In this document: piece after piece, positions 3,647 through 8,453 of the stretch
How the letters are laid out: each line of letters starts with the position of its first letter
How positions within the stretch are numbered: position 1 is the stretch's first letter
Virus record (IMG/VR): IMGVR_UViG_2563366806_000003
DNA: 43,220 nucleotides
Direction: 5' to 3' (one strand)
Origin: a virus
Taxonomy: Duplodnaviria; Heunggongvirae; Uroviricota; Caudoviricetes
Translations under genes and position numbers: made by a program
The notes under the pieces: generated by a model
Told to the model about the DNA's origin: nothing
What the model saw: the letters and a program-made list of their open reading frames with translations, nothing else
Database searches by the model: none

Positions 3647-4783
3647 TCACTCCCCCTTCACGCCAATGCCAGCGGCGCGGTCAATACGTTCAATTTCTGC
3701 CAGAATAAGAGCGCCAGCTTTTACTAAGTCGCGGCGTGCTCCTGATTGCTTCCACCAGTCAGGAGACCACGGCCAATGTGCTGGAGTGGAGAAACCTTGG
3801 TTGTGCGCATGAATTGCGTAACAAGCCGCTGCATCTGCTAATTCGCTATTTTGATATGCGTTGTCATGTTCAGGAGTCCATCCTTCAACCGACTGTTGCC
3901 GCTGGCGTTCTGCTACCACATCAAGAATTGCGGGATTGAATGCGCCCCCCTCCAGTTCTGCTATGCGCTTCTCTGCGGCTTCCAACTCATCCAGCATCGC
4001 CAGCACGGTAGTGGGGTTTGCTGCGGAGTTCAGCGCGTTCAAGGCAGTGATATCTGCATCAAGCTGAGTTCCTTCTGCCAGTGAGATATCGAAAATGTCA
4101 TCAGGCGGCATAACACTAAGGCGCTCATGTTCGCCAACTGCTGCCGCTGCGATTTCACGCAGCGCCTGTTTGTCGATGTTGCTCATTGGACTGCCTCCTT
4201 TACGAAGCTGTTCGGCGATATCTTCGAGAACGCCATCAGAGAATGAGCGATCAAAATGGCTTTCCGGCGCATTAGTCATAAACTCAGTAGAGGTAAGGAT
4301 CATCCGGGCAATATCCGCGGCGTTCTTCGCAGTATCATCAATAAAACCAGCTTTCCAGGCTGCCAACATTCTGTTCGCCACAAAATAAGCGCCTTCCTTG
4401 CGTGCTTCAGTCTTCCCTTCAGCCAGAAAAGCATCGGTGGCTGGGGTTTTGATTTCGTTAAGCGCATCACTGAATCCACCACGCTCCATACCTAGCTCTG
4501 CTTCGTAATCGGCATCGAATGCAGCGTCTTTGCAGAACTTCTTCAGCTTTGCATTCTCCGCAGCCAGCGCTGAAAACTTCTCGTGTGCCAACTTAACAGC
4601 TGCATCAGCCTGCTTAATTGACTCAATCGCTTTCTGGTGGTCTTCGTACAGAGCCGAAATCTTGGCCTCCGCTTCAGCAAATTTACGCACCAGATATTCA
4701 GCGTTTGTTTCGTTCACTTTCAGATCTCGCGGTACACATTTCCCGCGAAGAAACCCTTCCATTTCGAAAACATTCATGCGCAT
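3647..4783 (-). CDS. Ead/Ea22-like early protein with coiled-coil region and DUF550-like (possible nucleotide pyrophosphohydrolase) C-terminal domain
   Basis: 378-aa ORF; C-terminal …EGWTPEHDNAYQNSELADAAACYAIHA… resembles the DUF550 family common in lambdoid early-left regions (recalled, not searched). Confidence 0.5.
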   Translation of the reverse strand: MRMNVFEMEGFLRGKCVPRDLKVNETNAEYLVRKFAEAEAKISALYEDHQKAIESIKQADAAVKLAHEKFSALAAENAKLKKFCKDAAFDADYEAELGMERGGFSDALNEIKTPATDAFLAEGKTEARKEGAYFVANRMLAAWKAGFIDDTAKNAADIARMILTSTEFMTNAPESHFDRSFSDGVLEDIAEQLRKGGSPMSNIDKQALREIAAAAVGEHERLSVMPPDDIFDISLAEGTQLDADITALNALNSAANPTTVLAMLDELEAAEKRIAELEGGAFNPAILDVVAERQRQQSVEGWTPEHDNAYQNSELADAAACYAIHAHNQGFSTPAHWPWSPDWWKQSGARRDLVKAGALILAEIERIDRAAGIGVKGE

Positions 4784-5337
4784 TTGCGTAACTCCGATAA
4801 CTCGTTAAAACGTTCCATAAACATCCCATAGGCATGGCCTGGCGACAGTGGAATAACTTTGAACATCTCTGTTGCCGGGATACCTTCCAGTACAGGCCAG
4901 AAAGAGCCATCATCAAGCCCGAGATCGCGGCGTTCGGTTGCCAGCATGATGAGATCGGCATATTTCACGGGCGTACTCATAACCGGGGGTAACCCGTATT
5001 TCTCACGGATTACGGCGTCTATTTTTTCTTCCATCCGTTTATAGTCAGGAAGAAGGCGTTTCAGTGGTGCGGGAATGTCCTGGCAATACGCTTCTGTTGC
5101 ATCATGCATTAACGCTTCAAAAGCAAATTCGTGCGGTACCAGCTGGCTGCAAAGCACCGCATGTTGGGCGACGCTGTAGAAGTGTGAAAGATGTCCTGCA
5201 AAGCGACAGATATTTGAAAGGGAAACCGCGATATCGTTAATAACGATGTCATCTTTATTTATCCTGTCATAATAAAAATGCTTCCCGGAAAAAGTTTTAA
5301 TAAATGACATTTTGTTCTCCACGTATATGCGCTGCAC
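4774..5337 (-). CDS. HD-domain phosphohydrolase (YfdR-like 5'-deoxynucleotidase)
   Basis: …AQHAVLCSQL…EALMHDATEAY… HD-type motif pattern; same position and order as yfdR in the CPS-53 yfdP-yfdQ-yfdR cluster. Confidence 0.65.
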   Translation of the reverse strand: MQRIYVENKMSFIKTFSGKHFYYDRINKDDIVINDIAVSLSNICRFAGHLSHFYSVAQHAVLCSQLVPHEFAFEALMHDATEAYCQDIPAPLKRLLPDYKRMEEKIDAVIREKYGLPPVMSTPVKYADLIMLATERRDLGLDDGSFWPVLEGIPATEMFKVIPLSPGHAYGMFMERFNELSELRKCA

Positions 5338-6327: not shown

Positions 6328-6690
6328 TTAATGACCTGCTGCGCGGAGTTTTCCGTCAGGTTCACCGGCAAGAGTCAGCAACTGTCCCTGGTCTTCCTGC
6401 AGAATAGTCAGGCGACCACCGCGATTGACATACATCGGCGTTTCGGTGGTGTCTTCTTCGGAAATTTTCCCGCGGTTAGTCGGGCGAACATATGAGAGTT
6501 TGTGTTTGATTTTCACTCGGTTCTCATCAAACGGTTCGATTTCCAGGTTGAGCGAGACCTTACCTTTGGTTTTCGTGTTCATCACACCGGAAGCGACTTC
6601 ACTGAGAACTGCGCCGATTTTGGTTTCAAATACGCCGCCGTCCAGCTCCCCGATAAATGCCTGCACATCAGTACTGCGTTCGCTAGCCAT
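6328..6690 (-). CDS. Hypothetical phage protein, 120 aa (YfdP-like by size and position)
   Basis: Start MASERSTDV… preceded by GAGGAG; the 226-aa track ORF upstream extension runs into GC-rich structured non-coding DNA and is not credible. Confidence 0.5.
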   Translation of the reverse strand: MASERSTDVQAFIGELDGGVFETKIGAVLSEVASGVMNTKTKGKVSLNLEIEPFDENRVKIKHKLSYVRPTNRGKISEEDTTETPMYVNRGGRLTILQEDQGQLLTLAGEPDGKLRAAGH

Positions 6691-6719
6691 TTTGCTGCTC
6701 CTCATCATATCGACCCTGC

Positions 6720-7125
6720 AAGGTCGGTTAGTTTCTCCACAAAACAGAGAAGAACACCTGCGGTGACTGCCGCCCGGATGGATTGGGTTATGAGCCCGTC
6801 GTCCGGTGATGCTCTTCTCTGTTTTGTAAAAAGGACGGTACCAGCCGGAAGCAATGGTACAAGCTGGTACCGCCAAGACTACACACAGCATAAAGTTGTG
6901 GTGCCGGGTGCCTCCCGGTGCCTGGCGAAGGTTGCACACCAGGCGGGTGGGTATCCACAGAAGGTCGACTGTCAGCCTCAACCTTAACCCGCGTGCGCTG
7001 AGCCGCATTCACCACAACGCTAAGGATTCTCTCTGGTTGAAAATACTTAGCTGTTATGTGCCTGTCTTTTCACCACTTCAGGCTCGGTGGTATCCTTTTA
7101 AGCCCGTATACATAAAAGGAAAATC
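6720..7125 (-). other. GC-rich, highly structured non-coding region (candidate ncRNA or cis-regulatory RNA structure)
   Basis: 15-bp perfect inverted repeat caaaacagagaaga (6739-6753 / 6813-6827), second stem ggtaccagc/gctggtacc (6837-6871), further GC-rich palindromes; ORFs here on both strands have non-protein-like composition. Confidence 0.3.
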
Positions 7126-7127
7126 AA

Positions 7128-7373
7128 ATGACTTTTGATGAAAAAGAACTTGATAATGCAATTAATAAAATCATCGTAACGTCGCTCTTTTCCTGTCTCA
7201 GCGACACTCAGCAGAAACAGTTCTACGAATCGGCTTTCAACATGATCGAGCGTTGTTGTTTCTGCGATGCCGACGAGTTACCTGAAAAAATCAGGAAACA
7301 GTTGGCTGATGCTCTTCGAGTGCGACTTTCTGACCAATTTTCTGAAATGTGCTCTCCGAATTTGGACAAATAG
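7128..7373 (+). CDS. Hypothetical small protein, 81 aa
   Basis: Strong RBS (aaaaggaaaatcaaATG), protein-like sequence; overlaps convergently with the 7291-7566 ORF, so only one may be real. Confidence 0.35.
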   Translation: MTFDEKELDNAINKIIVTSLFSCLSDTQQKQFYESAFNMIERCCFCDADELPEKIRKQLADALRVRLSDQFSEMCSPNLDK

Positions 7374-7566
7374 AAAAAGGCCATTTCCATTCAGGGTCTG
7401 ATGGAAATACTTCAGCCTGTTCCAAAGCACGGCGTAAAGAGAATACAACTCCAGCCATAATCTGATGTTTCCCATTGGTCCAGCTATCGCCGCTCTGATC
7501 TACAGGAGCGGCTATGTCGTATGACCAAACGACTTCACCACTATTGTTTAAAATCTGGACTTTCAT
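7291..7566 (-). CDS. Hypothetical protein, 91 aa, first ORF downstream of the leftward early promoter
   Basis: GGAGG about 12 nt upstream; position equivalent to the first pL gene; its 3' part overlaps the + ORF and contains a terminator-like hairpin. Confidence 0.35.
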   Translation of the reverse strand: MKVQILNNSGEVVWSYDIAAPVDQSGDSWTNGKHQIMAGVVFSLRRALEQAEVFPSDPEWKWPFSICPNSESTFQKIGQKVALEEHQPTVS

Positions 7567-7684
7567 TTTGTTCTTTAACCTCCAGATACGGGCGTTTAAT
7601 GGCCCCGCCGAACAGCTCTTTTCCGCAATAGCTGCAATGTCTTTCGCGCATCAGCCTGCGCATTCACCACAACTCTAAAAACAA

Positions 7685-7737
7685 ATGTAGGATATCCAAC
7701 ATGTGAGTGTCAAGAGTTTATGTTGGTTATCCTACAT
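7685..7737 (-). promoter_or_regulatory. Left operator/promoter region (OL/pL-like): two 18-bp palindromic operators flanking a TTGACA -35 on the minus strand
   Basis: atgtaggatatccaacat (7685-7702) and atgttggttatcctacat (7720-7737); same operator/-35 arrangement as the rightward promoter at 8488-8516. Confidence 0.55.
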
Positions 7738-7753
7738 AAAAAGATAGGCTCAT

Positions 7754-7779
7754 AAAAAAACCGGGGATACCCCGGTTTT
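7754..7779 (-). terminator. Intrinsic terminator downstream of the repressor gene
   Basis: ccgggg-atac-cccgg hairpin with a T-run on the minus strand. Confidence 0.65.
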
Positions 7780-7799
7780 GCGATAGTGAGGAAGATGTG

Positions 7800-8453
7800 T
7801 CAAAAATCCATTATTACTTGTTTGACAAGACCAACTATTCTGCAGTTCTCACCGCATTCAATAGTTTTATAGTTAGGATTTAGTGGGACGAGATACCTGT
7901 TCGGCCAGTCCTCAACAAATTTTTTGAGTGTCGCTTCTTGCCCACCATTGATATGGGCAACAACGATTTTTCCGTTAATACACTCTGTATCAATAATATC
8001 TGGCTCTACGATAACGATAGAACCTTCTGGTATCGATGGTGAGCCGAGGGGATTGGTCATTGAATCACCACGGACCCGTAGTGCAAATGCCATTTCTGAT
8101 ACAAGGGCGGTAGTATAAACCCACTCTTCAGCATCTTCTTTCCTGACACCAGGCTCCGTCATTGTCCATGAACCCGCCTGAACCCACGAGATGAGGGGGA
8201 CTTTTTTAACTGCGAATATTTCAGGTTTTAGATTTATCTTTGGTTCAGGCGAGCCTTTTCCGCTAACAAGCCACAGAGGATCGCATTTAAGTGCGTTGGC
8301 TAGGGCTTGAAGGTTGGCTCCATTTGGTTGGTAGTCGTCCTTTTCCCATCCAGTAACCGTGACACGGTTCACACCAGTCAAATCAGCCAGTGCTTGTTGT
8401 GTCAGGTTCAGTTCTTTTCGCCTTTGGCGAATACGATCACTCATGTTCATCAT
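7800..8453 (-). CDS. CI-like prophage repressor (N-terminal XRE-type HTH, C-terminal S24 LexA-like peptidase domain)
   Basis: …LNLTQQALADLTGVNRVTVTGWE… HTH; C-terminal …LRVRGDSMTNP… and …KKF… S24 self-cleavage motifs; divergent from the Cro-like gene with operators between. Confidence 0.85.
   Translation of the reverse strand: MMNMSDRIRQRRKELNLTQQALADLTGVNRVTVTGWEKDDYQPNGANLQALANALKCDPLWLVSGKGSPEPKINLKPEIFAVKKVPLISWVQAGSWTMTEPGVRKEDAEEWVYTTALVSEMAFALRVRGDSMTNPLGSPSIPEGSIVIVEPDIIDTECINGKIVVAHINGGQEATLKKFVEDWPNRYLVPLNPNYKTIECGENCRIVGLVKQVIMDF

Follow-up and report, generated by a model that had tools for sequence, protein, structure and literature searches.

Here we present an analysis of a structured gap at positions 6700-7125 of a 43,220-nucleotide (nt) stretch of Caudoviricetes DNA (IMG/VR record IMGVR_UViG_2563366806_000003; the whole stretch is referred to as the window), which represents an SfV-like temperate phage or prophage. 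The gap does not code for protein, and its minus strand is strongly structured. Judged by sequence homology, the element that it contains is a divergent early-left variant of a known family of prophage small RNAs (sRNAs), STnc100/PasD, and a four-helix pseudoknotted fold of its core is supported by covariation. The pseudoknot, a related form of the core designated type B, and a copy in Escherichia coli K-12 appear to be undescribed in the sources consulted.

The core and its relatives STnc100 and PasD

The initial annotation of this DNA had described the gap as a GC-rich, structured region inside the early-left operon and had found no known phage RNA to which it could be matched. The latter statement is superseded, as the core is homologous both to the Rfam family STnc100 and to PasD1, a validated prophage sRNA of enteropathogenic E. 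coli (EPEC). In the Rfam scan that the annotation had recommended, STnc100 (RF02076) matches positions 7048-6825 of the minus strand over the full model (1-206 of 206) at 43.4 bits, just under the curated gathering score of 47 bits, with E-values of 6e-8 in a 901-nt search and 2.9e-6 for the whole window; it is the sole Rfam match in the 43-kb window at E<=0.05. The same sub-threshold match lies between cI and the first downstream early-left genes of SfV, ST64B, 118970_sal3 and phiES15. Alignment of the early-left copies revealed near-invariant blocks, UUGUGGUGAAUGCGGCU.AGCGCACGCGG and CACCGGGAGGCACCCGGCACCACAA, between flanks that are otherwise unalignable, and GGUGAAU and CACCGGGAGGCACCCGGCACC in the window are identical to the canonical STnc100 downstream of stx2B. 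A family model built here, R1, gives the window core 84.0 bits (E 5e-21), a score that is partly by construction because the window sequence is in the R1 seed alignment, and has no other match in the window. The core and its parts are as follows.

6895-7018, minus strand: pseudoknotted four-helix core, 124 nt, from the STnc100 match, family model R1 and covariation
7018-7010 / 6903-6895, minus strand: P1, the closing helix, GGUG/CACC plus 3-6 variable pairs
7009-7007, minus strand: AAU junction
7006-6991, minus strand: P2 hairpin, with five pairs, a bulge and a UNNGC loop
6985-6979 / 6934-6928, minus strand: pseudoknot AAGGUUG/CAACCUU, the second arm lying in the P4 loop
6944-6937 / 6927-6920, minus strand: P4
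6918-6914 / 6908-6904, minus strand: P5 hairpin CCGGG-AGGCA-CCCGG, abutting the P1 3' strand

This fold is supported by the relatives, in which covariation had been proposed as a check. When 38 diverse sequences were aligned with MAFFT, pairing was seen in 81.9% of the cells (shuffles, 72.9%); pairing in P2 reaches 100% and makes use of CG, GC, UA and AU, the inner pairs of P1 covary, and none of 500 shuffles reached any of the observed measures. Alignment of 124 matches to the model, which is fitted to it and therefore leans towards structure, gave 87.9% paired cells versus 70.6% when shuffled and 40-47% when the partners were slid, with 23 of the 26 pairs changed on both sides. The P4 and pseudoknot columns could not be aligned by MAFFT alone (P4 46% paired), and for these a per-sequence analysis and the model-guided alignment were used. 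Pseudoknot strands matched with their own partners have a mean of 6.57 nt paired, compared with 5.38 (standard deviation 0.14) when partners are swapped between sequences. The strands themselves vary, with AAGGCUGG/UCAGCCUU in phiES15 and AGACUGACA/UGUCAGUCU, AAGUCACA/UGUGACUU and AGGCUAC/GUAGCCU in other copies. About 30 nucleotides of the core are invariant, and the pseudoknot is kept from Escherichia to Pantoea and Erwinia.

Fold prediction is in agreement. Minus-strand positions 6820-7060 fold at -97.2 kcal/mol (z -3.96) and positions 6691-6835 at -60.6 kcal/mol (z -5.5), and in neither case was any of 200 dinucleotide shuffles as stable. The structural signal is specific to the minus strand, as judged by G-U pairs and a U-tract. 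Thus the earlier proposal of a structured RNA on the leftward transcript, with a role as sRNA or in processing or antitermination, is borne out by the fold, a terminator and covariation in more than 120 relatives. Some of its details needed revision. GC content is 0.52-0.58 across 6600-7100 versus 0.39-0.49 in the flanks, an enrichment that is real and only moderate. The 15-bp inverted repeat is present and extends to 25-nt arms (6739-6763 / 6803-6827, 84% complementary), and the second stem, given as 9 bp, is a perfect 10-bp repeat (6836-6845 / 6863-6872). These two repeats belong to a hairpin in the downstream 5' untranslated region and to the terminator, respectively, whereas the best-conserved part, 6895-7018, had been covered only by a mention of further GC palindromes; its closing helix is a 9-bp long-range repeat, 6895-6903 / 7010-7018, that had been missed.

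The likeness to STnc100 takes in a full-length alignment with the closing helix, the internal hairpins and the terminator hairpin, all in the same order, as well as a prophage location; the conserved blocks UGGUGAAU and CACCGGGAGGCACCCGGCACCA are identical in the window. The differences lie in P2, where three of five pairs are changed (GCGGC/GCaCGC in the window versus CCCCC/GGaGGGG in STnc100), and in position, the window copy being early-left, from cI and the leftward promoter PL to yfdP, and the canonical copies late, after stx2B or between Q and a holin gene. The window copy is also without an evident promoter of its own, and Rfam's consensus structure line does not mark the pseudoknot reported here.

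PasD1 of EPEC E2348/69 is a 173-nt Hfq-dependent sRNA, detected by Northern blot and by RIL-seq (which ligates and sequences interacting RNAs), whose predicted seed UGUGAG pairs with CUCACA in its targets (PMC8550237, text and supplement). PasD1 and PasD2 of EPEC have been described at 172-173 nt (Pearl Mizrahi et al. 2021; Zhu, Shabalina and Storz 2026 preprint), and a common ancestor of PasD and STnc100 has already been proposed in the 2026 preprint. On the Rfam STnc100 model PasD1 scores 37.7 bits, below the window element. The PasD1 sequence begins at P1 and contains the AAU junction, P2, a pseudoknot (AAUGAUC/GAUCAUU), a degenerate P5, a linker, the seed and a terminator, and it shares with the window a collinear layout of P1, AAU, P2, the pseudoknot with the P4 loop, the P1 3' strand, a linker, UGUG(A/U)AG and the terminator. 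Because the window RNA is collinear with PasD1 and homologous to STnc100, we read it as a divergent member of the STnc100/PasD group. It departs from PasD in its linker (12 nt, versus about 45 nt in PasD), in its P5, which is degenerate in PasD, and in one extra nucleotide within the seed. In addition, PasD lies in the late region near Q and a holin gene and appears to start at P1, 3' of a sequence that looks promoter-like by eye, while the window copy is known here from sequence alone.

Range of the family and the type B form

Searches for the core in viral contigs with the 5' block and in one genome per species with the 3' block gathered 123 unique cores, 81 of which were left after clustering at 88% identity. 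The cores range across Enterobacterales, including Escherichia, Shigella, Salmonella, Citrobacter, Enterobacter, Klebsiella, Kosakonia, Pantoea, Erwinia, Rahnella and other genera. In E. coli K-12 (NC_000913.3), a core of the window's kind, designated type A, is found in prophage Qin between the DicF terminator and dicB, in the dicB leader. This Qin core (locus L131, 2049-2190) scores 70.6 bits on R1 and 34.4 bits on Rfam STnc100, and its P5 hairpin carries the compensatory change CCUGG/CCAGG.

The sister form, type B, has the pattern GUGGUGAAUGCGCAGGCUGAUGCGC ... GCCGGAGAUCAGCACCGGCCACCAC, in which the closing helix, the AAU junction and the GC-rich first and last hairpins are kept around a hypervariable insert of about 40-110 nt. 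It occurs at loci L004 (1590-1880, minus strand), L013, L021, L048, L080, L091 and others, and is picked up by R1 at 23-29 bits. Its first and last loops are complementary (GCUGAU/AUCAGC), which makes a kissing interaction plausible; the loops vary too little for covariation to bear on it. Phages of the Stx2a_1447 type carry type B in place of type A, upstream of the same terminator and hairpin; in Stx2a_1447 itself, about 780 nt between cI and yfdP are without an annotated gene, and the stability of its 586-nt whole leader is not unusual (z -0.97). Types A and B stand in tandem at loci L126 and L128.

The copies fall into several contexts. Early-left copies are those of the window, ST64B, phiES15, Stx2a_1447 (type B) and Qin, and in all of them except the type B copy P2 is of a distinctive GCGGC type. 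In the late region, copies are placed between genes for Q antiterminators (PF06530, PF03589) and holin or moron genes, for example that of a KdgM porin, and some are directly 3' of stx2B. Stand-alone copies have the terminator of the preceding gene on one side and their own on the other, some of them with promoter-like hexamers as read by eye. Finally, arrays of 3-5 cores within 8 kb are present at six loci (L165, L177, L181, L205, L209 and L227) from Pantoea, Superficieibacter and other genomes.

Some type B inserts contain strings resembling a tRNA T-arm, and a T-arm-like GGTTCGAATCC in some relatives led us to consider a tRNA or tmRNA identity, which was rejected when ARAGORN called none in the window or the early-left loci. 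tRNA genes adjoin the core occasionally and not as a general feature. At L227, tRNA-like sequence follows each of the copies at 4069 and 4625 by eye, and ARAGORN called only the second of these (tRNA-Met, 4749-4824), along with a tRNA-Thr at 4998-5073. A literature search on EcOnc13 found nothing.

The 3' module, the yfdP leader and the neighbouring genes

On either side of the core, the gap contains the following elements (MFE, minimum free energy).

7019-7051, minus strand: 5' flanking hairpin GCUAAGUAUUUUC / GAGAAUCCUUAGC, from an inverted repeat and the MFE fold, within the Rfam STnc100 match (which starts at 7048)
6890-6875, minus strand: conserved single-stranded motif UGCUGUGUGUAGUCUU, a candidate seed, just 5' of the terminator
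6872-6828, minus strand: intrinsic terminator, stem CGGUACCAGC / GCUGGUACCG, about 13 bp in the MFE fold, then UCCUUUUU
6827-6739, minus strand: long hairpin of 89 nt, its lower stem having about 20 continuous pairs and its top being branched, starting directly after the terminator U-tract
6727-6710, minus strand: small hairpin CGACC-UUGCAG-GGUCG, immediately 5' of the yfdP Shine-Dalgarno sequence

The flanking hairpin at 7019-7051 is present only in SfV-like relatives; ST64B and phiES15 are not alignable there. The UGCUGUGUGUAGUCUU motif lies 12 nt 3' of P1. The consensus GCUGUGUG(U/A)AG(U/A)CUU recurs 3' of both type A and type B cores after unrelated linkers, in 21 of 144 downstream regions versus 2 antisense. 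The window motif GUGUGUAGUCUUGGCGG aligns with UUGUGAGUUCUGGCUG of PasD, near the published seed UGUGAG by the PasD1 terminator; the equivalents of that seed, GUGUGUAG in the window and GUGUGAAG in ST64B, are similar to it and not identical.

The terminator, with a GC-rich hairpin of 10-13 bp, was also picked up by a terminator scan made here. Terminator-like sites are found within 200 nt downstream of 69 of 140 cores, and 56 of the 69 end 20-79 nt, mostly 40-79 nt, past the 3' motif; the count in the antisense control is 26. A riboswitch-like alternative pairing of the P1 3' strand with the terminator, seen by eye in two type B relatives, was set aside as not general. Stx2 and Stx2c phages have in common with the window only 6650-6876, that is, the yfdP start, the long hairpin and the terminator, placing a recombination junction at about 6876, between the seed motif and the terminator module.

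Compared with Salmonella ST64B and 118970_sal3, the long hairpin shows compensatory changes, with G-C replaced by A-U in the lower stem and GCGG/CCGC by GCUG/CAGC in the apical sub-hairpin. The small hairpin has another sequence in the Salmonella relatives, GGCGG...CCGCC, which likewise forms a hairpin there. The size and place of the long hairpin suggest a candidate RNase III processing site in the yfdP leader. In the case of DicF, early termination and RNase E trimming yield a 53-nt form, and a read-through RNA is cut by RNase III to give a 72-nt form (PMC9438474). By coordinate arithmetic, the 3' end of the 72-nt DicF form falls at about L131 2054, inside the 12-bp P1 helix of the Qin core.

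The genes and sites around the gap are listed below.

7800-8453, minus strand: cI-type repressor gene
7713-7684, minus strand: PL-like promoter, from a sigma-70-like consensus scan
7291-7566, minus strand: 91-aa ORF (open reading frame), the first leftward one, phrog_3195 (98 aa), function not assigned, without a Pfam match
7128-7373, plus strand: 81-aa ORF abutting the right edge of the gap, phrog_3311, function not assigned, without a Pfam match
7052-7127, no strand assigned: spacer between the RNA module and the plus-strand ORF, containing hairpin ACCACTTCAGGCTCGGTGGT, terminator-like on the plus strand in appearance
6328-6690, minus strand: yfdP-like gene of 120 aa, start codon at 6690, Shine-Dalgarno GAGGAG at 6698-6703

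Leftward of the gap, the yfdP-like gene is followed by a DUF2303 gene and then an HD-type gene. The right edge of the gap is formed from 7128 onward by the plus-strand ORF, so that the gap, contrary to the initial description, does not simply separate two leftward genes. The convergent ORFs at 7128-7373 (plus) and 7291-7566 (minus) overlap by 83 nt, and the PHROG matches are full-length for both. No N-family protein was detected in the 91-aa first leftward ORF, and neither ORF upstream of the core, on either strand, matches Pfam. We found no promoter for the plus-strand ORF, and the consensus scan gave no sigma-70-like promoter on either strand of the 7052-7127 spacer. Several Klebsiella phages share, at about 96% identity, a 45-nt stretch (7051-7096) that includes hairpin ACCACTTCAGGCTCGGTGGT; there it is early-left (locus L253, 1490-1540), just 5' of the ribosome-binding site for a small ORF with a product that resembles a membrane protein by eye.

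Window positions 6650-7180 are 98.3% identical to Shigella phage SfV and are found in 2865 of 5426, more than half, of the complete E. coli genomes searched. The 400-bp stretch of the gap is also carried by SfII, SfIV, ST64B and many Stx (Shiga toxin) phages. Around the PL-like promoter (window 7680-7740 and 7757-7785 region) there is an operator-like inverted repeat, TGTAGGATATCCAACAT / ATGTTGGTTATCCTACA, and in the same region a strong terminator hairpin, CCGGGGTATCCCCGG followed by a T run, 3' of the cI gene. The SfV immunity region (locus L001, 6028-6216) matches isrK at 64 bits and C4 antisense RNA at 82 bits, which points to antirepressor control of the P1/P7 type in SfV. The window has no isrK or C4 match at the gathering or E<=0.05 thresholds; thus its immunity module differs from that of SfV.

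Proposed function and rival explanations

We favor, with a probability of roughly 0.6, an arrangement in the style of DicF and PasD, in which terminated transcripts would yield an Hfq-type sRNA and read-through transcripts would be processed at the long hairpin and express yfdP. Leftward transcription would start at the promoter-like site 7713-7684 and pass through the 91-aa ORF, the 124-nt core (7018-6895), the single-stranded motif (6890-6875) and then the terminator (6872-6828). Transcripts stopping there would carry the hairpin and U-tail typical of Hfq-binding sRNAs, and trimming of the 5' end would leave an RNA, about 190-225 nt long, that is collinear with both PasD1 and STnc100 and whose single-stranded motif would base-pair with host or phage mRNAs, as the PasD RIL-seq seed and DicF biogenesis suggest. 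Read-through RNA would enter the 89-nt hairpin and the small hairpin, which most likely serve RNase III cleavage and translation control. Cleavage at the long hairpin would separate the sRNA from the yfdP-yfdQ-yfdR mRNA, allowing yfdPQR and the genes beyond to be expressed.

The parallel with DicF and dicB of Qin is one of arrangement: both are early-left lambdoid operons in which an intrinsic terminator makes, or would make, an sRNA 3' end before the downstream genes, and Qin carries the same core immediately after DicF. The order differs, being core, seed and terminator here, whereas in Qin DicF with its terminator is followed by the core and then dicB. There is weak sequence similarity between UCUUGGCGGUACCAG of the window and UUUGGCGGUAUCAG of DicF; membership in the DicF family (RF00039) was rejected at 19.3 bits (E 0.18; 6887-6833, minus strand), against a gathering score of 48 and 76.7 bits for genuine DicF. 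Lambda PreS and StxS are Hfq-dependent sRNAs derived from within a phage operon or from its early termination, the source being early-left or prematurely terminated late transcripts, but they are short, simple RNAs with neither a pseudoknotted domain nor a sequence relationship to the window element.

Several points weigh against an Hfq-type sRNA. We infer the expression of the window RNA, and with it Hfq binding, targets and RNase III cleavage. Just 5' of the core, upstream of 7018-7051 on the minus strand, the scan found no sigma-70-like promoter and the hexamers are poor by eye, the nearest such site being the PL-like one at 7713-7684, whereas PasD1 appears to start at P1; an sRNA would thus have to be trimmed at its 5' end out of a PL transcript of about 850 nt. 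The Rfam scan at the gathering threshold returned no match, the STnc100 score falling short of it. The assignment of the candidate seed rests on likeness to a 6-nt motif, and in RNAduplex neither the window module nor DicF itself pairs with the ftsZ translation-initiation region better than shuffles do, a comparison that therefore has no power. About half of the family is without a nearby terminator, one core lies in the dicB leader and some precede tRNA genes. Finally, a pseudoknotted core with about 30 invariant nucleotides exceeds the usual needs of an Hfq sRNA, which hints at another partner or function.

The main rival, which we consider rather unlikely, is that the core is a cis-acting RNA that controls the adjoining and later terminators and so sets how much PL transcription reaches yfdPQR, xis and int, either by processive modification of RNA polymerase, like HK022 put or the Bacillus EAR element, or as a riboswitch-like or protein-dependent attenuator. 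We know of no antitermination activity for the STnc100/PasD family. The element does sit inside antitermination-dependent operons, both in its early-left copies and in the late copies between Q genes and holins, a terminator commonly ends about 40-80 nt downstream, and no N-family protein was detected to serve the early-left operon, the cI-yfdP interval of Stx2a_1447 being likewise devoid of an annotated gene. Moreover, the fold, with its pseudoknot and its invariant nucleotides in junction and loops, resembles that of an RNA that binds a ligand or a protein. HK022 put is also a structured RNA in the PL transcript, 5' of terminators, in a phage without a detectable N protein. However, put is built of two stem-loops and not of a four-helix pseudoknot (PMC9378689); it is about 70 nt long and occupies the extreme 5' end of the transcript. 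Homology to putL/putR was rejected, since nothing longer than 10 nt matches between the window and the HK022 immunity region (locus L006), where R1 has no match either. PasD1 and, by report, STnc100 accumulate as RNAs ending at the terminator directly after the core; thus the core does not abolish termination there. Half of the copies are without a nearby terminator, and arrays of 3-5 copies fit independent genes better than a leader element. A broader proposal, which we advance tentatively and regard as unlikely, is that the core may be an unrecognized class of functional RNA domain (types A and B) that could bind RNA polymerase, a host or phage protein, or a small molecule; the class would be spread in Enterobacterales temperate phages and might set early-left read-through in lambdoid phages without N, this one included. 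Fusions of the core are seen with a seed and terminator, with the dicB leader and with tRNA genes, and as many as five copies stand together in an array. It is more doubtful that the region serves only as processing or stability punctuation, with RNase III and RNase E sites and protective structures uncoupling the upstream ORF, in its decay and translation, from the yfdP mRNA. The 20-bp stem at 6739-6827, within the yfdP leader, has the size of an RNase III substrate, and the 72-nt RNase III species of DicF (PMC9438474) would end in the P1 helix of the Qin core, but punctuation leaves unexplained the conservation of about 30 nucleotides and a pseudoknot from Escherichia to Pantoea and Erwinia, the conserved single-stranded motif, and the terminator-flanked stand-alone copies, some with promoter-like hexamers by eye.

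Two further explanations deny that the element acts as an RNA, and both are very improbable. That the gap encodes small proteins would be in line with the match of its 49-aa ORF (6705-6854, minus strand) to phrog_33599 (E 1e-16), the weak match of its 94-aa ORF (6854-7138, plus strand) to phrog_36251, and the persistence of one open sense frame over the hairpin in the E. coli version as well as that of Salmonella. Since PHROG families derive from ORF predictions, miscalled genes are carried along, and these two are probably ORFs called across the RNA region in related phages rather than real protein families. No ORF of the gap, including one of 75 aa (6788-7015, minus strand), has a Pfam match. 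The sequence is stop-poor, with three of six frames open at once, the start codon is not conserved, and the ORFs cross the terminator and the pseudoknot core. The 17 substitutions that separate the window from ST64B have a codon-phase distribution of 4/7/6, without periodicity, alter roughly half of the residues, and are compensatory in the RNA stems, in agreement with the initial judgement that the region is non-coding. Alternatively, the conserved sequence could act as DNA, for instance as a protein-binding site, a recombination or module boundary, or a replication-related structure; the mosaic junction at about 6876, up to which Stx phages share the sequence from 6650, and the invariant blocks, which could be binding sites, are compatible with this. 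Against such a role, the helices are kept by fully compensatory changes and by G-U pairs, which are A-C mismatches on the other strand, the orientation relative to the terminator U-tracts and flanking genes is fixed, and the relatives PasD1 and STnc100 have been detected as RNAs.

The findings give an identity to a 400-bp stretch that is otherwise unannotated or miscalled as small ORFs, and they link STnc100, PasD and the K-12 dicF-dicB region, which have been separate in the literature. They also add to the family a pseudoknot, which covariation supports and the Rfam consensus line lacks, and type B as a related form. Should the terminated RNA be a regulator, induction of SfV-type phages would deliver an immediate-early sRNA, in parallel to lambda PreS and DicF. 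Were the core to control the terminator instead, this would represent RNA-based regulation of early-left expression in lambdoid phages without N. The copy in K-12 makes the question genetically tractable.

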